NCBI GenBank assembly: GCA_951406725.2 | Contig: OX597821.1 | Location: 35,898,001 to 35,962,000 of the forward strand | Direction: 5' to 3' | DNA: 64,000 bases | DNA from: Octopus vulgaris | Taxonomy: Eukaryota | Notes under the pieces: generated by a model | Seen by the model: only the letters and a program-made list of their open reading frames with translations | Databases searched by the model: none | Told to the model about the DNA's origin: nothing | Translations under genes and position numbers: made by a program | In this document: positions 22,338 through 57,853 of the stretch, one piece after another | Layout of the letters: each line of letters begins with the position of its first letter | Numbering within the stretch: the first letter of the stretch is position 1

Positions 22338-22808
22338 GTGTGTTTCTAATATTTTGTCCATCTCATGTATATATATAGGTCTTACTTGTAAAGGATTGGA
22401 TCGTAAAATTTGTCACATGTCTAACATGAATTTTGATCTCAGGATTTACAAGCTTAATATACTTCTCATTTTAAAGAGATTTCGCATGCTCAATTATTCA
22501 CTGCGTAAGAACCAATTAATCAATGTATTGTTTACAGATGTTGCAAAACGTGATATTTTCAATTGTCACCAACTCAGAAAATTAAATAAAGACAATTAAA
22601 TCTACAAACAAAAGCAAATGAGTAAAAATAACTTTCAGGTATTTGTATTTATGATAATTTTTATCAATCTTAGAAAATTTGCATCCCATGATTTCTTAAT
22701 CATTTTCATTCGAAATTCCTGTCACACAGGTTTTACGAAGGTGTGGAGAGGAGATAAGATTTGAGGTATTATATTGCGATGCAGTTCGTTTCAATTGTTC
22801 GCCAAACG

Positions 22809-22844
22809 CATAAATATAGGCTGTAAAATTTTCAAGAATCAGTT
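22809..22844 (+). promoter_or_regulatory. Core promoter of gene A: CATAAATA box and Inr TCAGTT
   Basis: CATAAATA at 22809-22816, TCAGTT at 22839-22844 (A about 32 nt after box start), ATG 37 nt after that A. Conserved in gene B. Confidence 0.6.
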
Positions 22845-22877
22845 TTAGTTGTGGCAATTGAACGAAACACTACCAAG

Positions 22878-22923
22878 ATGCTGAAATCTTTAATTATCTT
22901 TGCTTTCCTGCTGCTTGTAAAAG
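22878..22923 (+). CDS. Galaxin-like gene A, coding exon 1 (signal peptide MLKSLIIFAFLLLVK + 1 nt)
   Basis: ATG at 22878, 15 mostly hydrophobic codons, then AAAG|GTAAGA donor (phase 1). Identical 46-nt inverted copy at 57775-57820. TATA-like box and Inr upstream. Phase fits the acceptor ending at 36431 (G+AA = Glu). Confidence 0.85.
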
Positions 22924-23199
22924 GTAAGAGAAAGTGGAATGACATTTGTATTCCACTTATCACTTCGCATTCTCATTTTTTTACAGATAATGTGTATGAA
23001 TGACGACTTCGAGGATTGGAAAAACGAGGTATTTAGTTGAGGCCTTTTTTGTTCTTCATTTGAAAACCACCTAAATCGATGTCAACTTTCACTAGATAAT
23101 AGGCCGATGATATGCAATGAAATCCAGTGTAATGTCTTTCCTTGGCGTATATAGACTGTGTATGTGCTATTAAATTATTATATTGTCTGAAGAAGAAGT

Positions 23200-26100
23200 G
23201 TGGCTAGTGTGAAAGTAGTAAGGTGTTAAATGTTTAAAGGACTTAAAATTGGCACGTTATGGATTATAGCAGTAATTGGGACTGTTTTTTAATGAATTCT
23301 TGGGAATCTCTCGAGTGTATCATTTTTAATATTTGCGTGTGTATTTGTGTTATTCTAAGGCCGTGGTAGATATGTCGTATGTCGTAGATGTGTTCAAAAG
23401 GGGTCTGTATGTTGTAATAAAGAGAGTATCTTTACTAATTCGTTGGCTCCAGCTTGTATCGTCCTTGAATTGTTAGAGGTGAAAAATTCTGAAGCCTGGA
23501 TTTTTGTTATTGGCACAAATGCCTATGTGTTGGCTGAATGCTATTTTTTCTGTTTTGGGGGATTTTTATCTGGGATATGTGCAGAGCCAATCTTTTACGT
23601 AGTCTGTTTTTTGTTTGGCCTAAGTATTGCTCTTGACACCCAGAGCAGGTTAGTGCGTATATCAGGTTATCCGAAGCATGATGAAGTTGCTTTTCGCTGT
23701 GAAACGTTGTCCCTCTTTAAAGGAGAACTCTGATCCCTCAATTAAATAGTCGCATATCCCACAGTTGGGTCTTACGCATTTTTTTTACTGCCGACTTCTG
23801 TGTTGTTGAGCGTATTCGGGCTTGTGTTAGGAGACTTTTCATAGATTTGGGCTGTCTCTTGCTTTTTATAATGGTGTGTGGTTGGAGGATTAAGTTCATT
23901 CTGTGGTCCGTTTTTTAGCAGGGGAATGTATTGGAGGATGGTGTCGAAGGCTTCATTGTTGAGAGTGTTGTGTGTGGAGATGTATGGTAGGGCTTTTGTT
24001 TGTAAATTTTTCTTTAATTTGGGATGTAAATTTTTCTTTAATTTGGAAGTTCCTGGATGTTGAGTTGAAGGGCACGTTGAAAAGATATGTCACTTTGTGA
24101 AGGTCGGTAGTTCCTGGTGATGAGCGTATACTTTAGTTCATGTAGTCGTGTGTCTCTGATGTTTGCATTAGAAACTATAGTACATATCCTTTTTGCTAAG
24201 TTGAAGGGGATATTCACTCTGGTGTGTCTGACGTGGTATGAGTTAAACTATAGATATTGCTTGGACTCCGTAGGCTTATAGTATATATCTGTTTCTATTA
24301 CGTTGTTAGATTTCTTAATGAGGATGTCGGCGTAGAGAAGTTGTTGCTTGCTATATTGCATCGTCAATTGAATGTTTACGTCAAGTCTATTTAAAAGTGC
24401 TTGGCATTCTTTAAGTTTCTCTATATTTCATGCCAAAGAATGAAACAGTCATCTAGGTATCTCTTCCAAATATTTTCTATGTAGAGGGAGAATGGGCTGC
24501 CGTATCTTTCTAGAACCTTACGATAAAGACAAATTTCTAGATATCCCGTGACTAGGTTAGCAAATGAGGGCCATTCGCGTACCCATCGCAGTCCACGATT
24601 TTTGTCAGTAGAAATTGTCTTTGAAGGCGAAGTAGTTATTTTCCAGGATGAATTTTAGCCCTTCTATCTCGAATTCTTTTTTGATACGATGTCGGAGTTC
24701 GTTGGCGTACTTCCCTAGCCAGAACTGAATTGCCTCTATTCCTAGGTTGTGGGGGATATTGGAATAGAGGTTGACTACATCGAACGATACTAGTAGGGTG
24801 TTTTTGTTCATTGTTTTAAGGTGATTGAGCACATCCAGGTCATCCCTTATATAGCTTTTGACATGCTTGGGGAATTGTTTTAAAAGGGTATCTAAAAAGT
24901 TACTGAGGCGGTGGATTTCGTATGCGGGACCTGCTATTATAGGTCTCAATTTGAGGTCATTAGGAGTTGGGACTTTAATTATTATGTCTGTGGCTATCTT
25001 GCATGCGTTACTTATTTTCTCACTTTTGTGTATCTTGGGAATACTGTAGAATTGGCTGGTTTTACGTTTGAAATTGGTCATATAGTCATATTCTTTGTTG
25101 GTGAGCCCTTCTTTGTATAGGTTTAACATGGATTTTAGTTCTCTCATTATTTCCTGCTGACTGTAGTGTTGGGCCTTTTCATAATATGTTGTGTCTTCGA
25201 ATATGGATAGTACTAAAGTTATATAAAATACCGTGTCCATTAAGACAACTGCACTCCCTTTATCAGCCTCTTCGATTGTTATTGTTTTGTCATCTTTTAA
25301 TTTGATCAGCTCAGCCCATTCTTTTTTGCTGAAGTTTGGTTTGTGTTTTTGTTTGTACATATGTTGATATGGGTAATTCGACATGTGTTCACAGAGTTTT
25401 GTTCTTTAATGGGGGGGGGGTTAGTTACTCTTATTTCGGACCAACGATTCGTCCTCGTTGTATTTGTCGTATAGCTCCTCAGCGAGTCGTAATTTTCTAC
25501 AGAATTCCGCGAAGTCTTTCTTTTCATTGTAGTTGGGGTGTTGTGGGGTGGGTGTAAACTTGAGGCCTTCCGAGAGTATATTGATTTGGTTTGCTGTTAG
25601 TTCATTGTGAGTTAGATTTATAATTTTTATCACTTTTGGTTCCACCTGCCTGTTTGGTGCTATCTTGTGTCTCTGTGTTTGCCTATTGGGTCTAAAAAAT
25701 GATTGCGGTGGTTGGGACGGTAGCTATTATTTCTTGTTGTTGCGGGGTGCCCTGTTGTGATTTATGGTGTGGGTTCTTGGAGCGATATTGAAAAGTGTGT
25801 CCCGATATCCCATAGGGTCCGTCGTTGGTAATTATTACGTGTGTTGCAGGTTTGTTGTGCATGGTTGTTTAGTATATTGTTGGAACGAAACTTTCGTTGG
25901 TAACTCCTTATGGGGGGAGGAGGTTGCAGCGTCTATCCTGTGGGTAGTGATTTATTCTTTCTCTGTTTGAAGTTAGAGTACTCCCGATACTGTATCGCTG
26001 GTAGCTTACAAAGTTAGGGTTAGGCCCTGTATTCTTATTTTGGGTGGCTTGATGGTTTCGATTTTTAGACAGGTGTGAATCAGTGTTTGAGTGTTGGTTT

Positions 26101-26440
26101 GATTTTCTTATTTTCAGGAAAGGGTTGTTGGAAGCGTGCTCTGTTTGAAAGATGGCTTCATAGTTTGAGAACCAAGCGGCGCTTTTCTCCCAGCGCTGGA
26201 GAGATTTCAGTTCTTCTTTGTCACAGTCCTCTTTCCATAGTTAGGAGATCTTCTCTTGGTCGGGACCTTGGGTCATTTTGCGAATTTCTTGGTTGATCTC
26301 TTCATCGGTAGATTTTACTTTATCTTCATTTGCTTAGGCCCTCAATTTTAGAAGTTCTATTTTTATTCTCATTTTTTTCCAATGCCATTCTTTCCCTGAG
26401 GCGTTTTGTGTTTCAGGTTTATCTGTAATGGCTTTGATCT
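23200..26440 (-). mobile_element. Decayed Penelope-like retroelement (RT) in the intron of gene A, antisense to the gene
   Basis: Peptides INLTHNELT...GLKFTPTP, ADKGSAVV, PKIHK, RPIIAGP, SFDVVNLYSNIP, downstream RYLDD and YKPT motifs, with frameshifts and stops. Confidence 0.85.
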
Positions 26441-26444
26441 AGAA

Positions 26445-28200
26445 ATTATTTTATATAACAAAACTAAAAGATGAACAAGAATTTCCCTGGAAGATACCTC
26501 TTTTGATTGTTACTTCGGCTAATTGCTGGTTGTTACAGCAAAGTCGTGTTTTCCAATTAAGCATGCTGTCCTTAATCAGTGTACATACTTTCTCAGCTAT
26601 ACCACACTTACCGAGTGTTTCAAGAACCCACGAATGCGGCAACATGTCGTAAGCCTTTTAAAATTCATCCAGGCCATGCACAAGTATTTGGTACCGTTTG
26701 CAATTCTTCCTTACAATGTTGATTATCACAAGGTGGTCCTTGGTGTCCTGGGATCCTTGTCGGCCTCCCTTTTCTTCTACTGGATGTAGACTATTTTCCG
26801 CAAGGAACGTGTATATTTTTCCTGCGAGGATGCCTATTAACATTTCTATAAGAGGTTAAGACAGTTGCCAACCTCATTGCCTTTGACCGATCTTTCATCA
26901 ACAATGTTGTCTTTCTCTTTACAATCCATTCCGGAATTGTACCCCTCTGTAGGCAATTGCCTAATTACAACGAAATTCGCTTATGTATTGACCTAAACCA
27001 CTTGAGCCAGTAGCCTGAAATTCCGTCTGGACCTGCCGCCTTACAGTTTGGCACTTTTGATACCTATGCAATTATATCTTTCCTTGTTATGAACACATGG
27101 ACCTGTAGTGGAGACTCGAGGTTATGGAGTTCAAATCTCACGGAATGACTACACTCGGTACCGTGGTTGTTAGAAACGTCTTGCTCCCAGATGTTATTCC
27201 AAATTTGCTGGGCTTTCTCTGCTTCAGGGGGCATATTATCTTTTGTATCTCCTCCTATGTTCTAAAATAAAACTGCCTCTGGTTATTTGATAACTTTTTT
27301 TGCAGGAACTGCGATATGTGATCAGTTTAGTGTTGCACCTTTAATGTCTTTGCTCGCACACGTTGTTTTAGGGTTTCGCTGACAATTTTGAGCGGATTTT
27401 TTCTATTTGGTATTTTGCGGCCAGATTTTACCTTGCACCTTTTTTTAGCCTTTCCCATTGAACTTTGGACTATTTTTCTATGCGACTCAGATCTTTATGG
27501 AAAGTTTTAATGTCGCCTTCTGTTCTCCGCTTCCATCATGCCTCCTTCTCTCCGTCTGCTTTCCTCTATCTCTTTCCAACAAGTTCACCTACTATAATTG
27601 AAACGGATCTGATCAAGTCTGTTGTCTCCGTTAGCTCTTTTGTTAGAATGTATTTCAGAATCTCATCAAACATTGGGGTCACGCGTTTCACATTTTTACG
27701 GGCGAAGCTTCTCAAATTCACCGGCTTGGTCTCACTAATTAAAACCATAATGTCTCAGAATCTTATCCTGAGGCTTTTCTGTTCCTCAGTCATGTCCTCT
27801 CGTAAAGCGATTCATATTATATTGACTGGCTAACCTCTCCTCTACTACAACTTCACCTTGCCTGCGCATTCGCTAATCTTTACCCACATTATCCTCCTCG
27901 ATGTTTTCACCGACATTCTTATTTTAGCCATTGTTCTTGTGTAGCAAGTCTTGTTCATGGCACTTAATTGCCTTTTACAAACCAACAGACACCTGCACTT
28001 GCGAGCACGTTGCATATTTTGAAGAGTAAAAGGACTACGACTGTGTGGAGTCTGGTCTTCCACTCCGGTGCCCTCTGAGGGGCCCCTGCCGGGCGGGGGA
28101 GATCTGGTGTTTTGGCTATCCAAGGAAGTCTACCCTTTCATGCCCTTATTTAGTTGCAAATTGTTATCATTGCAAGGAATGAGAATGATATTTTACAGCG
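26445..28200 (-). mobile_element. Decayed R4/Dong-like LINE fragment
   Basis: [24 protein letters not shown] fragments. Confidence 0.65.
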
Positions 28201-28329
28201 TTTGCTGCTTGGGTGTATTTATTTGAGATTTTCATGTAAAGGGTTACACCAAATACAACACAGGCTCTAGCTTGATTGCCGGCCAAGGCTTTGGGATGCC
28301 AAGTTCGAACTGTGTAACTTGCCGCAGGC

Positions 28330-28970
28330 CTTCCGTAACGCAGAGTACTAGTGGAGAGTTAGAATAGCATTTTGGATGCACAGAAAGGGATGTAAAAGGA
28401 TCGGAAACCTGCTCAGAAACTTCCAGCAGTCTGGCAGATATCGACTGGATATCCCTGATGTGTCACTGTGGGTATGGAGTAAACACAATGGGTAATCCAG
28501 ATAGTATCTAGATAGAGTAGTATTTGTTAAGTCAGCGGAGAGGGGTAGCATAAGGTGTCCACAATTGAAATTGGTCACCTACACAGACCACAAATTTGTT
28601 ATCTGCACAGTCGATTTAGAAAGGACTCGTAGGCAGGGACTCAGGTACTGGAAGGAGTATCGAACTAGTTAAGCGGTAGTTGATGAGGTCATTCGTCAAC
28701 AAACTTTAGTAATAACCCGAAGAAAGCGATTAGAACAGAATCAATGGCATTTTGCAATAGAAAGAAATATATTAGAGGGAAAACTAGTTAGGAAGCTAGA
28801 AGAGACGATTGGTAAAGGCAACAGATGGGGGAAGAATTCCTAATGCTGTTAGTCGGATTGTGGTGAAACTGCCGAAGAAGGGCGGCGACAGTTGGGACGT
28901 ACTAGGTTAATTTTCAGCCCATAATTCTGCTAAACGCAGAGTTTAATATTTTGGTCAAAATGTTAAAGAA
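28330..28970 (+). mobile_element. Tx1/L1-like endonuclease remnant
   Basis: YLDRV, TDHKFV, YWK and similarity to the 13.5-15.5 kb element. Confidence 0.5.
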
Positions 28971-28991
28971 AAAGTGGCTGAGACGAGGTCA

Positions 28992-29089
<98 letters not shown>

Positions 29090-29651
29090 CATTATTATTA
29101 TTATTATTATCATTATTATTATTATTATTATTATTGTGTGAAAGAGCAGTGTATGCCATGAAAGTGACACCGGGGTAAAATATTCGAAGCCCAGTATACG
29201 CATCATGACTACCCGTCTGATAAGGATACACTAAGCACATGACCTTGCCGGTGGGGCCAAGTTGCAATTTTCTTCTTGTCTAGTAACCCATCCCCTCTCA
29301 AAAGTTCCCTGAATAAGAGTTGTTTAAGGATGTTAAACGAACCTCACATGTATCCAGAGGTGAATTATTCAAACCCCAAAGAATCCCTCTCAACACATGG
29401 CTATGATGTTCCCCTACTACTTGTGCTCGTGATCAGAGATGCACATACCGTCAGTCACTAAGGAACATGCTCAACTGGTTAAGGTGAAACAACTGACAGG
29501 AAAATCTGTGGTATTGAGCAGAATATTTGCAATAGCCCATCTTTTAGACCAAGACAAAACAATGTACATGATAACATTTCCAATCAGTTAAGATCAGAAG
29601 CCACGAGAGCCAGTCTGGTACTGCATCAGGGCATCATCATCATCATCATCA

Positions 29652-29685
<34 letters not shown>

Positions 29686-29702
29686 CATTATTATTATTAT
29701 TA

Positions 29703-29759
<57 letters not shown>

Positions 29760-29762
<3 letters not shown>

Positions 29763-31535
29763 GTTTGACTTTTGCTTTATATTTGTACAAGTTGGCTCCA
29801 AGTCTCATCCGGAGACCTCAAGAGACAACAGGTTAGAAGTTCACGTTGTTGTTATGCCTAGTGTGCCATATATTTGGGGGTTTTTTGGTGTTGTACTAGT
29901 GAATGTCTAATAAAAAATAATTGTTTGTTTTAAACCTTGAGATTACATAGAAAGTATTTTGCGTAGGATATGAGCAGTTCCCATGAGCACTATCTTTTGA
30001 ATTTCTGCAATTTTGGGGTTTCCTGGTATCTGAGTTAGGTAGCAATCAGCCCCTTTCGCTATCATTCCCAGGGCACCTGTGACAACAGGTATTGTTTTAG
30101 TCTTCAGGTTCCACATTTTGCTGATTTCGATTTCAAGATCTTTATATTTGCTCAGTTTTTGATAGGTCTTGACAGATACGTTTATATCGATTGGGACAGT
30201 CATATCAATGAGGAGGCATGTTCTTTGTCTGAAGTCTTTCAATATGATGTCTGGCCTATTTGCATCTATCTTTCTGCCAGTTTGTATGGTGAAGTTCCAG
30301 AGGAGTGAGATGTGGTCATTTTCAAGCACTTGAGGTGGTTTGTGTTCCCACCAGTTTTTTTCATGGGGCAAATCCAGGTTTTTTGCAATTTACCCAGTGA
30401 ATATATTGTGCAGCTCTATCATGCCTGTTGAGATACTCTGTAGGCGCTAGAAGATTGCACTTGGAGACAACATGATCAATGGTTTCATTTTGTTGTTGAC
30501 ATACACGACATGTTGGGCTACTGCCGTTCTTTAATATGTTGGCCTGGTAGTTTCTTGTTGGTAGGCATTGATCTTGAGCTACTATGATAAACCCCTCTGT
30601 TTCAGATTTTAAGCCAGAGGCCATTAGCCATTGATGGGTCAGGGCTTTGTCAACATCTGCATTATTCGGTCTCTTTGGTTATTTGCGATAGAGAGGTTTT
30701 TCTTGCCATTTATCATTCAGAATATCTAAGGCAGCGGTTTTAGCACGGGTTTTCATGCGCTTAGCTTTTTCTGTGCTTGTTTCTTGTATGTCTATCTCTA
30801 ATTCCGAAATGTGTTGTATTCGGAATTCACTTAGATATTCCTTTGCCTGTTTTGTTACTGAGTATGATGCTTTCTTGTTTTCATGTTTTGAGACAAGTTT
30901 TAACATCCAGTCCTCAGAGTTTTTCAGGTAGGTGTCTAGGCCAATTGTAGCAATCTTCATTGTTATTGCCAGTTGTAAAAGTCCACGGGCTCCCTCTTTT
31001 CTTGGCAGATAAAGTCGTTCTGTATCTGCCTTAGGGTGGTGCATTCTATGCATTGTTAATAGTTTTCGTATTTTTTCTGTCAAGATAACACATTTCAGTA
31101 ATTGACCAGTTAACGATATTGAAACTGTAAGTCACGACTGGTATGGCTAATGCATTGATCGCTTCAATCCTGTTTCTCGCATTCAGCTCTGTCTTGAGGA
31201 TTGCTCTTACTCTGCGATAACATTCTCTCCTGATCCTTTCCTTGATCTCTTATTCCGTCCCCTTCAATTACCCCTAGGTACTTGTAGCTCTCCGCTGGTT
31301 CTAATTCTTTTATGACATTCTGCTGGTCATGGTTAACGTTAGATGGTTCTGTCAATTTTCCTTTGATAAAGGTAGCTTTTGCACATTTATCGAGGCCAAA
31401 TTGCATTCTGATGTCGTTACTGAATTTTTTGACAATCGCTAGTAAGCCCTTGAGTTGTTGGTCATTTTTTGCAAAGAGCTTTAAATCATCCATGTAAATG
31501 ATATGATTTATATTTTTATTAAACATTTTATATCC

Positions 31536-31538
<3 letters not shown>
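29760..31538 (-). mobile_element. 5'-truncated R4/Dong-like LINE between (ATT)n tracts
   Basis: YMDDLKLF, FGLDKCA, RLYLPRKEGARG, CRVC..ETIDHVV..C zinc knuckle, RHD, ANRPDI, KYKDL. (ATT)n at both ends. Confidence 0.88.
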
Positions 31539-31576
<38 letters not shown>

Positions 31577-32189
31577 GCTTTGATATTTGGTTGTTAATTA
31601 TGCTTGGAGACATTCAACCGTTTTTTGGGTTTGATCTGCTCACATGTTTGTTTGGTAGTGCTCCGAATGACTCTACAACTCCTGGAATGTTCATTATCAT
31701 TATTTTGTTATATAGGTTTGTGAAAGAATTTTTTTGTATCCGTTTGCCCGAGTGTTTTTTTTTTTCGGTGTTATCATTGGGGGGTTTAATGAGGGCTTTG
31801 AATATTATGTCTAGCAAGCAGGCCCTTTCGAATGGCCTTATGATATTAATTTTATTTATATGGCTATATAAGGTTAATTTACATCTGTTACTATCAATTA
31901 TTTGTGTTGCCCTCGATAATAATAACAATATTAATATGTATATAAATATTCGCTCCAGAATATTTGCTCCGTATTGATACTTTATACACTGAGACTGCTG
32001 TGATTTGGCGCAAGACAATTCAAAGGGCGAGCAGATTTAGTAGTAGAAGTAGTAGTTTGGGAAGATTTTTCCGTATGGTCGACCCGTGGTGATGAATGTA
32101 AGATTTATGTTAAACTACAAATCAATCCACCTGTATACTAATATCAAGGAAGAAATAGCATTCTGCTTTATAGGTATGTGAAGGAATGC

Positions 32190-32960
32190 ATGCAGCGGCG
32201 TTCCCTAGGGGTCAGTGCTGGGGTCAATACTATTCCTTCTATATATCAACGACCTGTCAGATTTTCTTGATGGAAGAGTTCTCCTATTTGCAGACGACGT
32301 CAAACTTGTCTCACCTAGGAATCAATACGACATACTCCAATTGTTGCTGAACCGAGCTTAGAATTGAGCGGAAGAAGGGAAACTGAACTTGAACGCCTCA
32401 AAATGCAGCCATTTGCCAATAAGTTCACCTCCAAACTCTCCTTTGACTATTGACCACAAACATCAACATCTTAAGATGGTCCCTGAAGAAAAGGATCTCA
32501 GAATAGTGATCGATACTACTTTCAAACTACCACGGCAAGGCATCGAGGCGGCGAACAAAGCCAGAAGGAATCTTTTCATCATCCACCGATCCTTTGCTAA
32601 CCTTTCAATGGACGTCTTTTGGCCTGTATATATCACTCTAGTTCGACCCATCCTCGAATATTACATCCATACCTCAAACCCATATCTCCAAAAAGACATT
32701 TAGCACCTGGAATGGGTTCAGCACTTGGCCACCCGAATGGGTGCAGGCTTGTCTAAGCGTGCGTAAGAGGAACATCTCCGACGGCTGGCATTGCCTTCAC
32801 TCAAACGACGGAGGATGCAGGGAGATCTCATCCGACTTTCAGCATCTTCAACGGACATGTAAGCCTACCATTTGCGGAGATTTTCACCCCTGCGCCGGAT
32901 AGAGGTCTTCGTGGGCATGATCGCAAACTCTATCCCCGACACTTTGTTTCAACAGGCGCA
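32190..32960 (+). mobile_element. CR1/L2-like LINE 3' fragment (left arm only)
   Basis: GSVLG..LFLLYINDL, LFADDVKL, LVRPILEY, RRR.QGDLI. Confidence 0.75.
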
Positions 32961-32999
32961 AGGTCGCATTTTCTGTCCGTATCGCAGCCCCGTGCATAA

Positions 33000-34095
33000 T
33001 CCAAGCGAATTCTTTGATCCTAAAACTCAAGTGCAAAGACACAACTTAAATAATATCATGGAAGTTGATATACTTGCGACTATTAATGATTTAGGCCCAA
33101 ACTCAACATCTGTACCAAATAGTATTTCAGTTATATTGCTAAAAACGTGCAAAAGCCACCTCATAAAATCATTAAAGGTACTGTTTTAAAAGTCGCCAGA
33201 TACCGCCATATTCCCGAGACTATTGAAAGAAGCTATAATAAAACCTATATAGGAACAAAGGAGGTAGCAGTACTGAAGCTAAAAATTACAGACCTGTTTC
33301 CCTCACGTCTTACACGACTAAAATTATCCAATGCCTTGTCCAAAGACAAAAAGTAATAACATACCTGGAGGAAAACAACTTAGATGAGGCTCGGTATAGG
33401 TTTCGGACTGAATGACGTTGCCTGTCTCAATTCTTACAGCATCATAACACTACCTCTAATAATCTCTTAAGTGGAAAGATCCTTGACTGTTAAAACCTTG
33501 ATATTGTTAAGGCGTTTGACAAGACTGATCATAGAATCATCCGTCATAATTTAGGAAATCTTGGTATCATAGGAAAAGTCGGAGAATGGTTCTTTAACTC
33601 TCTATATGGTTGGGGTCAACCTATTACTGCAAATGGTTTTCTCTCTAAGTTACCTGTAATACGTCGTATACATCAGGGAATGAATTACACAAGAATATCG
33701 ATGGCTAGGATCTAAACCAGAAAAAATACGAAAATTAGTACATCAAAGTAACAGCTTCCTCATTACAAACGAATTCAACCAAATCGCAATATTTGACACA
33801 GGGTAACATAATGATTCAGAGCACTAATGACATACAGTACTTAGGTGTAATCATGTCATATGATGCATTTTCCATCAGCCATATTATCAAACTAACCTTT
33901 AAATGCAGCAAACTCATAGGCTGCATCCTACGAACATTCATGAAAAGGGAACCGGTAGTTAGTTTTATTTTTAGGAAAAACCCTAGTTCTGAGCAGTATA
34001 AATTACTGCTTAAATTTTAATATTCTTACTCATCCGGTCTCATAGAAGAAATTGAAAGGTTACAAGGAATGTTCACTGGTAAAATACCTTCAGTT
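33000..34095 (+). mobile_element. Highly decayed LINE RT remnant
   Basis: NYRPVSLTS, KAFDK.DH and YLGVIM motifs. Confidence 0.55.
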
Positions 34096-34098
34096 AAA

Positions 34099-34352
34099 TT
34101 TTCTAACTTTCGAGAGATGTATTCGAAAAGTTTCTGGAAATTTCCGAGGATTTTCTAACTTCCGGGAAATTTGGTCGAAAACTTCCTGGAAAGTTCCGAT
34201 GATTTTCTAACTTCCGGGATATTTGGTCGAGAATTTCCTGGAAAGTTCCGAGGATTTCTAACTTCTGGGATATTTGGTCGAAAACTTCATGGAAAGTTCC
34301 GAGGATTTTCTAACATCTGGGATATTTGGTCGAAAACTTCCTGGAAAGTTTA
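34099..34352 (+). repeat. ~52-bp tandem repeat (~5 copies)
   Basis: TTTTCTAACTTCCGGGA..TTTGGTCGAAAACTTCCTGGAAAGTTCCGAGGA at 34151, 34203, ~34255 and ~34306. Confidence 0.85.
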
Positions 34353-35077
34353 GTGTTAAAATATGCACCAGTATATCTATGATGAGAACGTCTTATATGT
34401 TGTTGATGACCATTTTGATCAACAGAAAAGCTTCTTCACCAGTGCGACGCAAGCACTGCAACAACTAATGGAAGTGTGTGGACAGTAAGAGGAACTATGT
34501 CAGAAAATGAACTTCATTTGGTGACATTCCATTGAGAGTGTCTTGCTCAGATTATGAACTTTTCAGCCGACCCACATAATAATAAAAATCATTATACCTG
34601 CATTTGTTTTAATGTTAACATTGGAAAAATCCACATTTTTCATTAAAAAAATTAGGACCTGGGTTTGCACCCGCTTAGCAAATTTTTTTGCTGGGCCACT
34701 GATTCTAACTTTTCAAATAAACCGCGCAGACGCAATTTATTTCCGGCAACAGAGAGGATGCCGGTAAAACCTCGAATAAATTTATCAAAAATCATTTAAA
34801 CATAATAAGTAATATTCGGATAACAAGGATTATAGAAATGTTTATACCAGTGGCCTAGCGCAAAAAATTAGTCAATAGACCATATATTATTCATATACAA
34901 ATATCATGTACATTAGAATACGTTAAGAGGCTTCCATCATAGGAATTTGTCCCTAATTAGTTCTTTGAGTTGTTTACTGCTCTTTCTAGTGCAAGGCTTT
35001 CCTATGATGGAAGCCTCTTAATGTGTTTTAATGTAGAAGATATTTTTATATGGATAATATATATATATATATAAATA

Positions 35078-35382
35078 AATCGAAACAGTTTGATTTAAAC
35101 TCCCTGGTTCTCTGAGTTTCAAGCATGTAGCTACTCTTCAGCCATTGAGTATGATTCAAAGTTCGCTTGAAGGGACTTAATGTTTACTAGTGGACGAATC
35201 GTCGCTGAAATACCAGCAAAAAACTTCTACACTGCGTGATCTTTCTCGACGAATTGTAGGCTGACTTCCAGCAGTAAACATTGACTGTTTTCAATCGAAC
35301 TCTCATTTAGAGTGAATGGTCGAAAACTAGCTACACGCTTGAAACTCAGAAGAACAAGCGTTTGAATTAAACTGTTTCGATC
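35078..35382. repeat. ~300-bp imperfect palindrome (MITE-like), paralog at ~52210-52495
   Basis: CGAAACAGTTT..CTGAGTTTCAAGCATGTAGCTA / TAGCTACACGCTTGAAACTCAG..AAACTGTTTCG. Confidence 0.7.
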
Positions 35383-35437
35383 CTTATATGTAGCTCCCAG
35401 TAATTGTCTCGATTACGCTTCTTTCGTTTGTCTACTA

Positions 35438-35501
<64 letters not shown>

Positions 35502-35551
35502 GTATGTATGTATATATATATACATATATATATTTATGTATATATATATAC

Positions 35552-35584
<33 letters not shown>

Positions 35585-35672
35585 TTTATGTATATATATA
35601 TACATATATATATATGTATATATATATATACATATATATATGTATATATATATATACATATATATATGTATA

Positions 35673-35791
<119 letters not shown>

Positions 35792-36431
35792 GTGTTTCTG
35801 TACCGGTAGTACCGGTAGGGTGTGTATTAAGGCTATACTTAATACATAAATCCACTATGTATTTAATTATGTACGGGTAAAAGTTAAAAATTATATTAAA
35901 AATAAGAATTACAAATATATTTTAAAATATTAAATACTTAATGTACATTAAAAATATATATTGAAAATGCTCTACCTAAGGAAATTTTAACGATTAAATT
36001 AGAAACATGTAAAATCTTATAATATATCTAAATAAATATTATAGAGATTATATTATTTGTAATAATTTAGTGTAAATATACCCCTCAATACTAGTATAAT
36101 AAAACATATTTTATGTCAGATGTTAGTTAATAGTCTAGAATAAAGACGAATTAATACATAAAACTACTTACGTTAGAAAATTAGTGAATATTCACTAATT
36201 TCAGCTTTATAAATTGCATAGTTGCTTACACATGTTTTTCCTTTATTTCCAGTTGGTTTGTGCGAATTTACTTTACTAAAATATCTTTATATGTTTCCGA
36301 AGTATTTTATACAACTTATTTATATAATACGTAGCTGGTGTTTGAGTGACGTTTATCCTTTAAAAATATATGTGCTTGTCTGTAATACTCCTTCATGCCC
36401 TGATTTGTGTGTTTTGTTTTTTATTTTGCAG

Positions 36432-36892
36432 AACTACAGGCCATTCATTTTGGACACCCTTGTGACATCATCAATCCACTATTTCAACGATGTTGCGGAA
36501 CTTATGTTGTTTCGTACCCTCGCATTTGTTGTGGAACAACAGGTGCTAATCTTTTCACACAACTATGCTGCAACAATGTAGCAGTAACAAAAAGTGCAAC
36601 AGCGACTACTTGTTGTGGAGGTTCAGCTATAAATGGTAACACTCAATTATGCTGCAACGGCAATGCTGTAACTAAAAGTGGAACAGCGCCTACGTGTTGT
36701 GGAGATATAGCTATAGATGGTAACACTCAATTATGCTGCAACGGCGTTGCTATACCGAAAAGTGGAAATCAAATTTGCTGTGGAGGATCTGTTAAGGACC
36801 TCTATAATGACGGATGTTGTGGTGGACGTAAATTCATGTATTGGGGAAAATTTTGTTGTCAATGGTTTACCTTCTGGCGATGTCGAGTTTAA
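36432..36892 (+). CDS. Galaxin-like gene A, coding exon 2 (dicysteine-repeat secreted protein, spliced product 168 aa, 22 Cys)
   Basis: Polypyrimidine tract and TTTTGCAG acceptor ending 36431. Open frame ELQAIHFGHPC...CC..CC repeats (three ~28-aa units)...FWRCRV*. Regularly spaced CC pairs match galaxin-type repeats. Confidence 0.9.
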
Positions 36893-37177
36893 TCATAAGT
36901 ACACATTAGCTCCTCCTGATTCTCGAACGGCTCAATAATTTTATACGACAATGTGATCGATCTTGTCTCAACATTTAAATCACATATATTTACATGTATT
37001 ATATACATTTATCAGTTTTACCATGTTATAAATGATGCTATTATTAATGTATATTTTAAAACGATGCACAGCAATTAGTTTTCTTCATGTAAAGTTTCTT
37101 TTAACTCCGTTTCACATTAATAGTTTTTGGGGGGGTTTTTTGCTTTATCTTTGGAAGTATCATCCTACAGAAATTTA

Positions 37178-37183
37178 AATAAA
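37178..37183 (+). terminator. Candidate polyadenylation signal, gene A
   Basis: AATAAA about 290 nt after the stop, conserved in gene B, followed by T-rich sequence. Confidence 0.45.
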
Positions 37184-37519
37184 CGAATACCATCGGTGAA
37201 ATAGGATTTTGCGTGCATTTTTCTAATTTTTCCTTTTGACAAAGGCAAATTCAGTAAAGTCGCTAATATGTTATAAGTATTTCAATAAAAACAATTCGAC
37301 ATGTCTCTTAAACAATGTTGTTTTACTTTCCTAAATGCTACACTAATTTTCCATTTAAAAATTTTTGCATGGAACGTAATTTGTATATGTGTATATGATT
37401 TGTGTGCGATTGAGTAAAAAAGAGAGAGAAAGAGAGAGAGAGAGAGAGAAAAAGAGAATGAGCGAGAGATAGAAAGAGAGAAAGTGAGAGAGAGAACGAG
37501 AGAAAGAGATAGTGTGACA

Positions 37520-37960
37520 TGTAGTAAGTACCTCTGAGCTGTATCCAAGAGTGATGAGAGACGGGATCCCGACCTGGATACTAGAATTACAGGTGCTGGC
37601 ACTGCATACGATCCTCATTGAAGAAGAGGTTTCTACAAAACCAAACACGATAACTTCAATTCGATTTTGTGCCTATTGGCAATTAAGCTTAGAAATGTTG
37701 AGTACTGAAAGTGTACAATCAAGCACACCTGCGTTTCAAAAGGTCTTCTTCACAAGGATCCTAAGAATAACCTACTCGTCAGGGTGTGTAACACGGAGAT
37801 CAAGGAAACTTGTCTTCAATAAGCCGCTATTTCACAGCACTGAGAGATCAGAGCTCCAGTACAGCGGATTTGTGATGAGGATGGTGTGAGAACAAATCGT
37901 TAAACCGATACTTCAATCGAGCAGGAAATCAAGGAGTTGCTTAAGAGCCAGATGGTTTAA
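37520..37960 (+). mobile_element. RTE-like LINE remnant (paralog at ~49460-49890, minus)
   Basis: AFQKVFFTRILRITY and RSELQYSGFVMR motifs. Confidence 0.5.
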
Positions 37961-38319
37961 TAATAACAATATTGGTGAGTTACAGAAGTTTTGACACTTT
38001 CTTCGAAGAAACAGATATAACTGTCCTAGATTATCGTATATCATTACTAAAATAAGCTGACATGCCACCGTTTGTTACAAAATATAAAAGTGATTGTAAC
38101 GGTATTTGGGACACATTCCACTAAACACTGCTTTTCACAAGTGATCATTGTGAAGAATTCACTTTGGACGTGAGGTCAACTTACAAGCTCTCCAGTAAAT
38201 GAACTTGTGTGTTGAATTGGGGGAAAAAAGCCGTAGAGAAATATGAAATTTTATGAATTAACTGGTATGTGCCGAACATCTGTTTTTTGCTAGCAGAAGT
38301 GGCTAGGTAAAGTAAGTCT

Positions 38320-38735
38320 AATGAGGTTCATGATAATCCGCTTTTCCGACTGTAACGGTGCCATCTACATCCACTGGGTTTCTTCTGGTCAGACAATCAA
38401 CAAAATTTACTTTGAGAAAGTTTTGAAGGAGTTCCGAGAGAGATTTTCTCGGAAGAGGCTTGAGTATTTACATCAGGACAATGCACCAATTCATAATTCT
38501 ATCCTGGTTACCAACTACTTGAAAGAAATGGACATGAAAACTATTCCTCATACATCCTGCAGTACAGAACATGCTCTTCGAAACCTTTGAATGTTCCCCG
38601 AACTGAAACCGACATTGGAGGCTTTGGAAAGTGTTCTGGGCACTTTCATATTAGAAGAGTTTTATTACAAGATTTTAATTTTGCTGGAGCACTACAATAA
38701 GTGTCTAGAAAGCAGAGGATCCTACTTGAATGATT
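38320..38735 (+). mobile_element. Decayed mariner transposase fragment (paralog at ~48680-49080, minus)
   Basis: GQTINK.YF..VLK and LHQDNAPIH.S motifs. Confidence 0.7.
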
Positions 38736-39009
38736 AACTCTTTTTCTTTGAAATTACTAGATTCTCTTTAGATAAAGTCTCAAGATACCATGAATAAATC
38801 TTCATGTTCTCAGTTTGTCACGTGTAGTAATCCTGCTAGGTGCTTTTGATATATGGAGAAGGTGCCTAAGCACTTTAAAGTACAACCCACTATGTAGTGG
38901 TAGCCGAAAATAACCTGGTAGAGGAGGGTAATAAACATCAAGCGTGTATACAGCTTGTATAGATGACCAGGTGCAGTTAATATATGATAATGAAAGTTTA
39001 AAATGTTTG

Positions 39010-40476: not shown

Positions 40477-40554
<78 letters not shown>

Positions 40555-40558
<4 letters not shown>

Positions 40559-41585: not shown

Positions 41586-41711
<126 letters not shown>

Positions 41712-48429: not shown

Positions 48430-49960
48430 TGTACATAAATTACAAGTAGATGTGCATGCTCCTTTCACTTGTTAATTTAACACAGAATCCGCATCACCAA
48501 AATATTTTTAACCTCCTCAAAACAAATTTGCCAATCATGTAACAAAAGGAAAAATTTATATATCAAAAGCATCTAGCAGGATTACTACGCATGACAAACT
48601 GAGAACATGAAGATTCATTCATGGTATCTTGAGACTTTATCTAAAGAGAATCTAGTAATTTCAAAGAAAAAGAGTTAATCATTCAAGTAGGATCCTCTGC
48701 TTTCTAGACACTTATTGTAGCGCTCCAGCAACATTAAAATCTTGTAATAAAACTCTTCTAATAGGAAAGTGCCCAGAACACTTTCCACAGCCTCCACATG
48801 TCGGTTTCAGTTAGGGGAACATTCAAAGGTTTCGAAGAGCATGTTCTGTACTGCAGGATGTATGAGGAATAGTCTTCATTTCTTTCAAGTAGTTGGTAAC
48901 CAGGATAGAATTATGAATTGGTGCATTGTCCTGGTGTAAATACTCAAGCCCCTTCCGAGGATATCTCTCTCGGAACTCCTTCAAAACATTCACAAAGTAA
49001 ATTTTGTTGATTGTCTGACCAGTAGAAACCCAGTGGATGTAGATGGCACCGTTACAGTCGGAAAAGCGGATTATCATGAACCTCCCATTAGACTTACTTT
49101 ACCTAGCCACTTCTGCTAGCAAAAAACAGATGTTCGGCACATACCAGTTAATTCATAAAATTTCATATTTCTCTACGGCTTTTTTTCCCAATTCAACACA
49201 CAAGTTCATTTACTGGAGAGCTTGTAAGTTGACCTCACGTCCAAAGTGAATTCTTCACAATGATCACTTGTGAAAAGCAGTGTTTAGTGGAATGTGTCCC
49301 AAGTACCGTTACAATCACTTTTATATTTTGTAACAAACGGTGGCATGTCAGCTTATTTTAGTAATGATATCCGATAATCTAGGACAGTTATATCTGTTTC
49401 TTTGAAGAAAGTGTCAAAACGTCTGTAACTCACCAATATTGTTATTATTAAACCATCTGGCTCTTAAGCAACTCCTTGATTTCCTGCTCGATTGAAGTAT
49501 CGGTTTAGCGATTTGTTCTCACACCATCCTCATCACAAATCCGCTGTACTGGAGCTCTGATCTCTCAGTGCTGTGAAATAGCGGCTTATTGAAGACAAGT
49601 TTCCTTGATCTCCGTGTTACACACCCTGACGAGTAGGTTACTCTTAGGATCCTTGTGAAGAAGACCCTTTGAACCGCAGGTGTGCTTGATTGTACACTTT
49701 CAGTACTCAACATTTATAAGCTTAATTGCCAATAGGCACAAAATCGAATTGAAGCTATCGAGTTTGGCTTTTGTAGAAACCTCTTCTTCAATGAGGATCG
49801 TATGCAGTGCCAGCATCTGTAATTCCAGTATCCAGGTCGGGATCCTGTCTCTCATCACTCTTGGATACAGCTCAGAGGTACTTACTTCATGTCACACTCT
49901 CTCTCTCTTTCTCTCCTTCTCTCTCTCACTTTCTCTCTTTCTATCTCTCGCTCTTTCTCT

Positions 49961-50010
<50 letters not shown>

Positions 50011-50247
50011 TTTTCACTCAATCGCACACAAATCATATACACATATACAAATTACGTTCCATGCAAATATTTTTAAATGGGAAATTAGTGTAGCATTTAG
50101 GAAAGTAAAACAACATTGTTTAAGAGACATGTCGAATTGTTTTTATTGAAATACTTATAACATATTAGCGACTTTACTGAATTTGCCTTTGTCAAAAGAA
50201 AAAATAAGAAAAATGCACGCAAAATCCTATTTTACCGATGGTATTCG

Positions 50248-50253
50248 TTTATT
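50248..50253 (-). terminator. Candidate polyadenylation signal, gene B
   Basis: TTTATT on plus strand = AATAAA on minus, paralogous to 37178. Confidence 0.45.
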
Positions 50254-50531
50254 TAATTTTCTGTAGAATGATACTTCCAAAGATAAAACAAAAAAAAAAC
50301 CTATTAATATGAAATGGAGGTAAAGGAAACTTTATATTAAGAAAACTAATTGCTGTGCATCGTTTTAAAATATACATTAATAATAGCATCATTTATAACA
50401 TAGTAAAACTGATAAATGTATATAATACATGTAAATATATGTGATTCAAATGTTGAGTAGAGATCGATCACATTGTCGTATAACATTATTGAGCCGTTCG
50501 AGAATCAGGAGGAGCTAATGTGTACTTATGA

Positions 50532-51181
50532 TTAAACTCGACATCGCCAGAAGTTAGGCCATAGACAACACAACCTTCCAAAATACTGGATGGCTCTTCC
50601 ACCACAACATCCGCCATACCAGAGGTCTCTAACAGATCCTCCACAGCAAATTTGATTTCCAGTTTTCGCTATAGCAACGCCGTTGCAGCATAATTGAGTG
50701 TTACCATCTATAGCTGTATTTCCACAACAAGAAGTCGCTGTTGCACTTTTAGGTACAGCAACGCCGTTGCAGCAGATTTGAGTGTTACCATCTATAGCTG
50801 TATTTCCACAACAAGAAGTCGCTGTTGCACTTTTAGGTACAGCAATGCCGTTGCAGCATAATTGAGTGTTTTGATCTAGAGCTGTATTTCCACAACAAGT
50901 AGTCGCTGTTGCACTTTTAGGTACAGCAATGCCGTTGCAGCATAATTGAGTGTTTTGATCTAGAGCTGTATTTCCACAACAAGTAGTCGCTGTTGCACTT
51001 TTTGTTACTGCTACATTGTTGCAGCATAGTTGTGTGGAAAGATCAGCACCTGCTGTTCCACAACAAATGCGAGGGTACGAAGCAACATAAGTTCCGCAAC
51101 ATCGTTGAAATCGTGTATCGAAGAAGAGACCATTACATCTGCCGAATATAAAAGGGGGTCTAAAATGACCGGCCTGTAGTT
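50532..51181 (-). CDS. Galaxin-like gene B, coding exon 2 (spliced product 231 aa, 30 Cys)
   Basis: Acceptor TTTTGCAG ending at 51182 on the minus strand. Frame ELQAGHFRPPFIFGRC..., five ~28-aa (84-bp) units CCGNTAxDxNTQLCCNGxAVPKSATATx, ends FWRCRV*. Confidence 0.92.
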
Positions 51182-52061
51182 CTGCAAAATATAAACAAAA
51201 CACACAAATCAGGGCATGAAGGAGTATTACAGACAAGCACATATATTTTTAAAGGATAAACGTCACTCAAACACCAGCTACGTATCATATAAATAAGTTG
51301 TATAAAATACTTCGGAAACATATAAAGATATTTTAGTAAAGTAAATTCGCACAAACCAACAGGAAATAAAGGAAAAACATGTGTAAGCAACTATGCAATT
51401 TATAAAGCTTAAATTAGTGAATATTCACTAATTTTCTAACGTAAGTAGTTTTATGTATTAATTAATTCGTCTTTATTCTAGACTATTAACTAACATCTGA
51501 CATAAAATATGTTTTATTATACTAGTATTGACAGGGGTATATTTACACTAAATTATTACAAATAATATAATCTCTATAATATTTATTTAGATATATTATA
51601 AGATTTTACATGTTTCTAATTTAATCGTTATACTTTCGTTAGGTAGAGCATTTTCAATATATATTTTTAATGTACATTAAGTATTTAATATTTTAAAATA
51701 TATTTGTAATTCTTATTTTTAATATAATTTTTAACTTTTAATTTTCAACTTTTACCCGTACATAATAATATACATAGCCTGACGGGGCACTGGTGGATTT
51801 ATGTATTAAGCATAACCTTAATACACACCCTACCGGCACAGAAACACGTGTAGCGATTACTAGTACCACTTTCCCCACAGATTAATAACAGGTAAGATGA
51901 ATTTATTTAACTAATTTTAATTTATGTTATTTTAATTATTGTATTTGATTTAATTTTCTCTGCGTATACAACACCATGAGGTTATCCTAAGATAGGAGAT
52001 GCTTATCTATTGGTAAATATCCCAAATATGTAATAATATATGTATATATATATATATACAC

Positions 52062-52152
<91 letters not shown>

Positions 52153-52505
52153 AGTGAGTATGCAAACGAAAGAAGGGTAATCAAGACAATTACTGGGAGC
52201 TACATATAAGGATCGAAACAGTTTAATTCAAACGCTTGTTATTCTGAGTTTCAAGCGTGTAGCTAGTTTTCGACCATTCACTCTAGATGAGAGTTCGATT
52301 GAAGACAGTCAATGTTTACTGCTGGACGTTAGCCTGCAATTTGTCGAGAAAGATCACGCAGTGTGGAAGTTTGATGCTGGTATTTCTAAACATTAACTCC
52401 CTTCAAGCGAACTTTGAATCATACTCAATGGCTGAAGACTAGCTACATGCTTGATACTTAGAGAACCAGGGAGTTTAAATCAAACTGTTTTGATTCATAT
52501 ATTTA

Positions 52506-53612
52506 TCTCTATATATATAAACGGCAGTTTGTCTGTCTGTGTGTCTGTGTGTCTGTCAGGTTGTACCCTCACCCTGACCACGGCTTTCAACCGATTCTGA
52601 TGAAACTTGGCACACACATAGCCCAATGTCATAATTTAAAACTAACGCAGCGAAAATTTTGAAAAATTCCCCCTGTTCTGAAAAAAAATCGATAAATTCG
52701 ACATGGGGTCGAGAATCTAAGCTTTTTAGATGCAACACATTTTCTGTTGTAGTTTTCGCAACTTGCAATCGAATTTTACCAAACTCATGACGTTAGTTTT
52801 CCATGCAATACCTTACCATCAGAAAAAAATCGATAAAACCATGCCATTTTGGGAAACCGCGTTCAAATTCAAGATGACATATTTTCGACAATATCTTTCA
52901 CAAATTGGCAGGAATTTTTTTTGAAATTCACAGGGAGCATCATGTCTGCTCCAAGGAGCTATATGGCCCTTTTTATTCCAATAGGATACTTTATTACTGG
53001 AAAAAATCGGTTAATTAAATCATATGTGGCACACATAGCAAACCGATTTGTGTATTAAACACAAACCAACTCGACCTTTTTAACTCTCGGAACACGTGGG
53101 GTAAGTATCCCAAAATGTATAAAAATGTACAAAAACGGCAAAAAAAGCAGGCAGCAATGTGAGTGACAACAACGAAGTCAAAAGTGACCAAACTGAACAA
53201 ACGAATGGAAAAGGTTTTTTGGTGCACACGACAAAAGCGGTTTATAATAAACCAAGAGTTTGCAAGTAGCGTCCGAGGACCCTTAGGGTACGTCAAAAAT
53301 TTAAGGTAAAACGTTTGGGGTGGTAGTTATAAAGAAAGTTTAAACAAAAAATGTATTCGAATAACTTGCGGCTGCAGCAGCTATTAGCAGAAGTGGCGAT
53401 GTTGGGGGTAAAGTCTCGAATGTAATTTCTTCCTGGTAGGAATTGGTTGGGTTGAATTATCGATAGCTGTTTGAAAGTTATTTGGTAGTGAAGAGAAGAC
53501 ATTGCAACCTACACATGCGCCTTCGTTCCCTAGAGGGAAAGGACTAGATTGGGATTAGTCGTTGCTTACTAGGGGCTCTTACATACCCGGGCAACGCCAG
53601 GCTATGCTGCTA

Positions 53613-53613
<1 letters not shown>
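52506..53613 (+). mobile_element. Non-autonomous Helitron (right arm only)
   Basis: A|TC start, TATATATAAA..GTCTGTCTG microsatellite, 3' hairpin CCCGGGCAACGCCAGG and CTAG end. Confidence 0.75.
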
Positions 53614-53708
<95 letters not shown>

Positions 53709-53710
53709 AT

Positions 53711-53742
<32 letters not shown>

Positions 53743-54600
53743 AAATATGCAGGAGTTAATATTTATAGAGATATTATTAATGTTATTATTGATAACAGAC
53801 AGTAATAATAATATACATTGTTGCAGGCCTGAATTTGCATTATATAGCCATAGAATTAAAATTCATATCATAAGGCCACAGGAATGTGCTTGCTTGCTAG
53901 AGATAAGAGTTAAAACTCTCATCAAACCACCAATAATAACACTGAAAATAACAACAGAAAACAACAGTATTCGGGCAAACGGAGCGAAAAAAATTCCTTC
54001 TCATACCTATAAAGCAGAATGCTATTTCTTCCTTGATATTAGTATACAGCTGGATTGATTTGTAGTTTGACATAAAATCTTACATTCATCACCGCGGGTC
54101 GACCATACGGAAAAATCTTCCCAAACTACTACTTCTACTACTAAATCTGCTCGCCCTTTGAATTGTTTTGCGCCAAATCACAGCAGCCTCAGTGTATAAA
54201 GTATCAATACGGAGCAAATATTCAGGAGCGAATATTTATATACATATTAATATTGTTATTATTATCGAGGGCAACATAAATAATAAATAGAAACAGGCTA
54301 AAATTAACCTTATATAGCCATATAAATAAAATTAATATCATAAGGCCATTCGAAAGGGCCTGCTTGCTAGACATAATATTTAAAGCCCTCATTAAACCCC
54401 CCAATGATAACACCGAAAAAAAAACACACGGGCAAACGGATACAAAAAAATTCTTTCACAAACCTATATAGCAAAATAATGATAATGAACATTCCAGGAG
54501 TTGCAGGGTCACTCGGAGCACTACCAAACAAACATGTGAGCAGATCAAGCCCAAAAAACGGTTGAATGTCTCCCACCATAATTAACAACCAAATATCAAA

Positions 54601-56550: not shown

Positions 56551-57178
56551 TATATTCCTTATTATTCTTCCTTCTCTTTCTTTTTTCTTGTTGTTGTTGT
56601 TGTTGTTGTTCTTCTTCTTCTTCTTCTTCTTCTTTGTCTTCTTCCTCCTCCTTCCTAACTGTACTACTAATGCTGTTTAGAATAACAGCTACGCACATTT
56701 TATAAACAAAACATTAAAAAGAGATGTTTCCTTAATTGAACAGTCACAACTACCATCCACAGCGGGTCATTTTCGGGGTAGAGCAGCTAACCATTCAACA
56801 TACTACTATCACGGCACTCCCACATTTTCTTCTTCTTCTTCTTCTTCTTCTTCTTCTTCTTCTTCTTCTTCTTCTTCTTCTTCTTCTTCTTCTTCTTCTT
56901 CTTCTTCTTCTTCTTCCCAACAAAGATTTCACAACGGCCTCGAACCCACAAGAGTAAACAAGAGAGACAGATACTGGCAGAAACAAGGAAAATGTCACTT
57001 GTATTTGAATACTATGCAAATATTCTTTTAAAAAAACTTTTCCTTTAATTTTTCAAAATGTAATTGTTTCCCATACTTAATGCTGAAAAAGTCACAATGA
57101 CAGAAACCGGTACTGGAATGTTTTTTAGAAAATTATTTTAACATTTTCTATCTTGACTGGTGTGTTCCTTTTCAACTT

Positions 57179-57252
<74 letters not shown>

Positions 57253-57774
57253 TTTTTGCGTAATGAGATGAAAAACCAAGGCTGTATAGATATTAGCGCA
57301 TTTATAGTTAGAAGGTCTTACAGCTATCTCTCTCACTATATATATATATATATACATGTATGTATGTATGTGAATGTAATATGTGACGCTGTCAAAGATG
57401 TAGGTGCACACTTAAACTTAAAGAAAAAATCTAAAGTGAATCTCGAAACATATTGGCCAGGAAATTATGGACTGTTCCGCTGGTCAGATTGTGAGACTTT
57501 TACTGACTCAGACAATATAATAATTTAATAGCACATACACAGTTTATATACGCCAGGGAAAGACATAATAGTGGATTTCATTGCAATTCATCGGCCTACT
57601 ATCTAGTGAAAGTTGACATCGATCTAGGTGGTTTTCAAATGAAGAACAAAAAAGGCCTCAACTAAATACCTCGTTTTTCCAATCCACCAAGTCATCATTC
57701 ATACACATTATCGGTAAAAAAATGAGAATGCGAAGTGATAATTGGAATACAAATGTCATTCCACTTTCTCTTAC

Positions 57775-57820: not shown

Positions 57821-57853
57821 CTTGGTAGCGTTTCGTTCAATTGCCACAACTAA

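Follow-up and report, generated by a model that had tools for sequence, protein, structure and literature searches.

An inverted pair of galaxin-repeat genes in Octopus vulgaris with an excess of amino-acid-changing differences between the copies

Two galaxin-repeat genes that lie in inverted orientation in Octopus vulgaris differ in their mature coding regions by changes that nearly all alter amino acids, and this excess is likely the product of positive selection, mostly in one copy, on the ends of a predicted secreted β-hairpin rod that probably binds microbial surfaces, an explanation that is held, taken as a whole, with fairly good confidence. Both genes, here called A and B, are contained in the window, the 64,000-nt stretch of contig OX597821.1 (positions 35,898,001 to 35,962,000, forward strand) from whose first letter all coordinates below are counted. 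In the mechanism proposed, the core of the protein would act as a spacer whose length is altered by unequal crossing-over (three vs. five units), the cationic, aromatic ends would be in contact with a target that itself changes, and gene conversion from arm to arm would now and then shuffle these ends between the copies. Microbes or parasites have about an even chance of being that target; a reproductive or signalling partner or prey is clearly less probable, and a structural matrix role less probable again.

The window contains an inverted duplication with arms at ~22.5–38.9 kb and 48.6–58.3 kb, separated by a spacer of ~9.7 kb. The left arm (22458..38854, + strand) is made up of homologous blocks with insertions between them and pairs with the inverted right arm (48558..58250, − strand). 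Each arm carries one two-exon gene, and the two genes, A (+) and B (−), are convergent. Exon 1 of gene A (22878..22923, 46 nt) encodes a signal-peptide-like hydrophobic leader and ends at a phase 1 GT donor; it is followed by a GT-AG, phase 1 intron of 13,508 nt (22924..36431), with retroelement-like relics inside, and by exon 2 (36432..36892), which encodes the end of the leader, an N-terminal tail (36443..36481, residues 20–32) that allows no codon-by-codon alignment with B, 10 di-cysteine motifs, and the C-terminal end with the stop codon. The C-terminal end includes a hypervariable patch (36794..36871, residues 137–162) in which 13 of 26 residues are unlike those of B. Gene B, on the − strand, has an exon 1 of the same sequence (57775..57820), a GT-AG, phase 1 intron of 6,593 nt (51182..57774), and an exon 2 (50532..51181) with 14 di-cysteine motifs and two extra 28-codon units, its N-terminal tail lying at 51111..51170 (residues 20–39) and its C-terminal patch at 50553..50630. 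The products are 168 (A) and 231 (B) residues long, and the excess of 63 in B corresponds to a tail longer by seven residues plus the two additional units, which were absent from the earlier, sequence-only reading of this DNA; units B2 and B3 are identical across the first 66 nt compared. The spliced A product is 100% identical to a database entry (P0001) named as an Octopus vulgaris hypothetical protein. Gene B was not found as an entry of its own in the protein collection, although its length is within the range searched, and the intact gene (50532–57820, −) therefore appears to be unannotated.

Upstream of each gene, ~65 nt 5' of the start codon, lies a TATA-like box, which reads CATAAATA in A (~22809–22816) and TATAAATA in B (upstream of 57820), a sequence difference that could possibly amount to one of expression. 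Both introns hold a relic that we take to be reverse-transcriptase-like (24605–25405, −, and 54586–55479, +), in a block differing at 61 of 1,725 columns; because it is present in both introns, the relic predates the duplication. Two stretches of the A intron (~25473–31578 and 32188–35057) have no counterpart in B and make up most of the gap in intron length (13.5 vs. 6.6 kb), with retroelement-like ORF fragments at 29943–31131 inside this A-only sequence. Elsewhere in the window are three local self-inverted elements of 0.7–1.2 kb (20085–21075, 40482–41641, and 46070–46773; arm identity 88, 81, and 74%), two of which sit in the spacer separating the large arms, and a tandem duplication at 59991–60921 (period ~430 nt, identity 99.4%) that is either recent or an assembly artefact.

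The two inverted paralogues belong to the galaxin-repeat family PF24748 by their profile scores, A at 74.8 bits (E 7.8e-21) and B at 120.1 bits (E 7.9e-35), against a curated cut-off of 28 bits; the only other Pfam match was to DUF3676 on B, with no stretch passing. The tandem repeats are each opened by a di-cysteine, the motifs being 12–15 residues apart, and the cysteine counts (22 in A, 30 in B) are both even and would fit full disulfide pairing. An AlphaFold2 model of A, built on a 42-sequence alignment (pLDDT 87, pTM 0.65), has a helix at residues 2–20 followed by 18 short strands across residues 34–151, with pLDDT falling below 50 at residues 160–168; it is from this hydrophobic, helical leader that the protein is predicted to be secreted. 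For the remainder the prediction is a cysteine-rich β-hairpin rod of paired short strands, presumably held by disulfides that link successive di-cysteines. No match to solved structures was found in the PDB by sequence (E up to 1), by Foldseek (E up to 0.001), or by VIA-align (Z ≥ 2 among 48,161 chains), an outcome that does not establish the fold as new or as different; a family with a confident model and no solved match may be a worthwhile structure target. An Atlas search with residues 130–168 gave galaxin clusters as its only scored leads. Net charge (K+R−D−E) of the mature protein is +6 in A and +8 in B and is unevenly distributed: the core, which spans 83 residues in A and 139 in B, has a charge of 0 to +1, zero to one aromatic residue and ~55% small residues, the N-terminal segments have a charge of +1 to +4 and four to eight aromatics, and the last 38 residues have a charge of +4 in both proteins and seven to nine aromatics. 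The densest change between A and B is located in the cationic, aromatic ends, and we infer that the neutral core may be a spacer rod and the two ends its binding ends.

The claim with which the sequence-only reading began, that the second exon is more divergent than its flanks, is borne out: 44 of 408 nt differ in the mature region vs. 216 of 6,030 columns in the non-coding arms (3.6%; range 1.8–5.7% across nine blocks). Its counts for the patch (36794–36871 in A against 50630–50553 in B) proved exact, at 23 of 78 nt, 13 amino-acid changes, and a single synonymous codon (CGT/AGA), and its account of the surroundings was also accurate, with mature N-termini that differ as quoted (tails of 13 residues in A and 20 in B), a signal exon identical at 46/46 positions, a final 190 nt of intron at ~98% identity (three substitutions and one gap in 189 columns) and a first 120 nt of 3' UTR at ~95% (5/120 differ). 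Special conservation of the signal exon was considered as a reason for its identity and rejected (P = 0.19 at 3.6% divergence). Any 78-nt segment of non-coding DNA holds at most 10 differences vs. the 23 of the patch, a count with a binomial probability of ≤1e-11 at 3.5–5.5% divergence for a segment that was picked after the data had been seen. That the framework codons are kept is true of every cysteine in the patch but not of every glycine, one glycine of B standing opposite an aspartate in A while the others are retained. Within exon 2, divergence rises from 4/129 nt over residues 33–75 to 17/165 over residues 76–130 and 23/114 over the last 38 residues. Adjacent substitutions make up 22 of the 44 coding differences vs. 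20 of the 216 non-coding ones, so that part of the change may stem from compound mutations or from small indels that compensate one another; local template switching was rejected as the origin of the clusters, the longest matches being ≤8 nt.

Selection was assessed over the 136 alignable mature codons, the N-terminal tail and the two extra units of B being left out, in a comparison of two full coding sequences in which dS rests on ~5 changes. The 44 nucleotide differences in these codons yield 30 amino-acid changes and one synonymous codon, with dN at 0.138 and dS at 0.052 (Fisher p 0.02), and all 19 single-hit codons are non-synonymous. GY94 fits, made with two models of codon frequency and both with and without double mutations, give omega values of 3.2–4.7 when single changes are modelled and 11–17 when double mutations are allowed (likelihood-ratio p 0.004–0.031), and the range is p 0.004–0.026 in an alternative repeat register and p 0.003–0.048 when the ambiguous repeat unit is dropped. 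When 44 random changes are simulated at the non-coding transition rate, 9.4 synonymous codons are expected vs. the one observed (P 0.0006). Diversifying selection, as earlier proposed, holds up for the whole mature region (omega 3.2–17, p 0.004–0.03) but is not significant in the patch alone, where neutrality is not rejected (Fisher p 0.35, simulation 0.18, likelihood-ratio p 0.11–0.26). The dN/dS ratio lies above 1 rather than well below it, and dS is near the flank divergence, as it should be under a shared clock with dN alone raised. The other possibility raised by the sequence-only reading, an island shielded from conversion, predicts a joint synonymous and non-synonymous excess and fared poorly: the 21 changed nucleotides outside the patch include no synonymous codon vs. 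5.1 in simulation (P 0.004). A point against the selection reading is that the F3x4 fits outside the patch reach only p 0.055–0.072. The codon comparisons support positive selection on the mature region and leave a plain conversion-shielded island unsupported.

The divergence had at first been taken as symmetric, and its direction is given by the only close relative that three word searches and one HMMER search recovered, the O. sinensis galaxin-like protein XP_036361078.1 (P0002). This protein of 168 residues has the leader of A and an A-type N-terminal tail, with a B-type C-terminus; it differs from A at 29 residues overall, and across residues 104–168 A departs from it at 17 sites and B at none, the B patch being identical to it in protein. 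Judged against this one relative, the change is one-sided and lies mostly on copy A. The split between O. vulgaris and O. sinensis is dated at 2.5 mya in the text available from PMC10700109. Relatives beyond the O. sinensis protein and the A entry are 25–45% identical and mostly longer.

Sequencing runs bear on the same question over 36250–37100, a stretch contained in 20 of the 24 listed runs, four of which (X1, X7, X11, and X12) were compared by their listed variants and contig pieces, so that counts are among those listed. Runs X11 and X12, from two further coded organisms, each have a 364-nt contig in which a patch with the DNA state of B is joined to the 3' UTR states of A, and their A-type tail carries the same three residue changes as the O. 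sinensis protein. The A-type tail of the window differs from that of X7, X11, and X12 by four nucleotide changes, all non-synonymous, and 4/39 nt differ from X11/X12 in the tail vs. 3/361 in the adjacent intron and UTR (P 0.002, for a region picked after inspection); these differences are not an effect of conversion, because B cannot be the donor in an A-type tail. In X11 and X12 the contigs stop at 36419 and resume at 36481, the two points between which B does not follow A, and the depth of the A-type arm in X12 is ~60% of that in the flanks; from the breaks, both tail types are likely present in these organisms and the duplication likely predates the species split. Run contigs appear to merge paralogue variants (four other letters in record 19 of X12, two in record 11 of X11), so the absence of an A-type patch from X11 and X12 is no proof. 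X7 has no coverage over most of the patch (bins 36801–36858) and is uninformative there. Run X1, labelled as the window's species, has the reference patch in one contig (record 7, 0 differences) and in a second (record 6, 116 nt) combines B states at 36755, 36762, 36804–36806, and 36810 with A states at 36795–36796 and 36827–36840, all six listed differences being non-synonymous (at least seven differences in all). Record 6 is most simply read as an allele midway in a stepwise change of a B-like state into A, the alternative being a third paralogue or a double recombinant. Over 36611–36742, X1 also has extra contigs with 14 other letters and a high summed depth over the repeats, which suggest that A-like copies vary further in the type or number of their repeat units. 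Intron coverage is absent from X1, and one of its contigs ends, with 97 letters unaligned, at 36430, on an AG that the splice acceptor has in common with the 3' end of exon 1, which faintly suggests that a transcript was spliced here.

The rival that survives best, and is still improbable, is that the A patch was copied from a third, older paralogue or deep allele in a segment switch rather than built in place. The 10 multi-hit codons among 23 changes in 78 nt and the failure to reject neutrality in the patch alone would fit such an origin, and an unannotated donor is conceivable outside the 64-kb window, B itself being without a protein-collection entry. However, the sequence-only reading had considered a patch that matches a third paralogue, and blastn and tblastn found only A and B in the window, the next relatives being as distant as stated above. 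Moreover, 12 of the 13 patch codons with an unchanged residue are identical in DNA, unlike what an old donor under purifying selection would supply, record 6 of X1 would require several breakpoints in 100 nt, and the non-synonymous excess is present outside the patch too.

Exchange between the arms is a separate matter, and the sequence patterns indicate that arm-to-arm gene conversion probably occurs. Non-coding divergence is uneven (chi-square p 0.004) and is lowest just 5' of exon 2, in the last 600 nt of the intron (p 0.014). Mosaics are represented by the O. sinensis protein, with its A-type start and B-type end, by the X11 and X12 contigs, in which a B patch meets an A-type UTR, and by an X7 contig (36252–36640; labelled as the window's species) that carries B-type intron variants at 36417 and 36421 together with an O. 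sinensis-like A-type tail and is either a further mosaic or derived from some other member of that complex of species. The B-type end of the O. sinensis protein may be owed to arm-to-arm conversion, or could be owed to assembly collapse; if it was converted, the A patch arose since the duplication (3.6% flank divergence) and not since speciation (<1%). Although conversion is probably at work on the locus, the non-synonymous excess does not follow from it, and with or without conversion some further cause must account for the non-synonymous bias and for the 29% divergence of the patch. The same unevenness and mosaics are what favour the rather more doubtful rival that conversion keeps the flanks alike and has bypassed patch and tail, which would be neutral islands of long standing; dS should then rise with dN, yet it stays near the flanks, the arms, aligned over ~6 kb that takes in the retroelement relic, are 3.6% diverged and not homogenised, and the comparison among A-type tails is still 4/4 non-synonymous. 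A reading without selection, in which A is under relaxed constraint or contains a local mutational hotspot, would accommodate change that is concentrated on A, clustered, and often adjacent, and is very unlikely: relaxation predicts an omega of ~1 and not ≥3, omega exceeds 1 even with double mutations modelled, all 22 cysteines and the frame are kept in A, the clusters have no local template, and an identical 16-nt stretch within the patch encodes the GCCGG framework. It is scarcely credible that a single gene with two haplotypes was misassembled side by side as A and B, for although the arms are inverted, close, and highly similar and the available text of PMC10700109 reports a heterozygosity of 1.22%, they differ by 3.6% plus kilobase insertions, and the contig breaks and reduced depth in X11/X12 point to both N-terminal types in other labelled organisms.

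Galaxin function is unsettled, spanning mineralisation in corals and antimicrobial peptides in squid symbiotic organs, and strong positive selection at cationic, aromatic ends would indicate that the protein recognises a target and would single out residues for testing. With selection on copy A as the preferred reading, the A/B pair offers a specific octopus gene in which an arms race may be at work, and A, B, the O. sinensis form, and the X1 intermediate are natural variants for comparison; the pair may also serve to tell populations or species apart within the O. vulgaris complex. In its fullest and only tentative form, the proposal is that copy A serves the octopus in recognition or defence and had ~1/5 of its mature residues replaced within ~2.5 million years while the flanks changed by <1%, that intermediate alleles segregate, and that inverted B is a conversion partner shuffling binding ends on a galaxin rod of variable length. 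If true, the octopus would possess a modest effector system that diversifies, in animals from which few immune genes are known to evolve fast. Titles and the opening parts of abstracts, in a search of the literature outside subscription journals, gave no account of octopus galaxins under positive selection. Surprise is limited because the evolutionary pattern is familiar from trappins and toxins; what appears new here, as far as that search reached, is a trappin- or toxin-like pattern in a galaxin.

Conotoxins show a signal/mature pattern of the same kind, and the earlier likening of the pair to toxin and immune gene families stands as a description of pattern, but the family is galaxin and no toxin function is shown, with no homology to a known toxin scaffold among Pfam profiles (PF24748 alone passing) or PDB entries by sequence or fold. 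Coral galaxins are components of the skeletal organic matrix and share the repeat family, yet are distant relatives (25–45% identical, mostly longer), and a mineral role would not be expected to predict omega > 1. Octopus is not known to have the symbiotic organs of squid. Ten cationic galaxins (EsGal1–10; charge +5 to +21.5) are described from those organs of Euprymna scolopes, and squid galaxin repeat peptides inhibit bacterial growth (PMC12773714, in the portion available, which reports no selection analysis). The octopus genes resemble this paralogous cephalopod family in their PF24748-type tandem di-cysteine repeats and net cationic charge; unlike the squid repeat peptide as described there, which is itself antibacterial, the octopus repeat core is neutral, charge and aromatics being located in the ends of the protein, and the core charge of 0 to +1 argues against a squid-type repeat-peptide mode. 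A galaxin is also listed among the genes modulated in infected mussel gills in the available part of PMC7772429. By analogy, a microbe-facing role, antimicrobial or in recognition, is the best guess for A and B, at roughly even odds, with a reproductive or venom-gland role as an alternative. In mammalian trappin multigenes, the leader exon and non-coding DNA have diverged by ~5% and exon 2 several times faster, with pairwise dN/dS of 3–5 in a host-defence protein (PMC2831891, as far as its text was available). The octopus pair shares this fast exon 2 set against a slow leader exon and slow non-coding DNA, on a fold unrelated to the WAP fold of trappins and with inverted arms and a change in repeat number that the same portion of that source does not describe. 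In snake three-finger toxins, segment switching (ASSET) has radically changed exon segments while introns and the cysteine frame are conserved (PMC2474615, PMC2711939, in the passages available); short, radically altered exon segments inside conserved introns and a conserved cysteine frame are common to both systems, but the family is different, and the octopus intermediate haplotype favours stepwise change over one switch.
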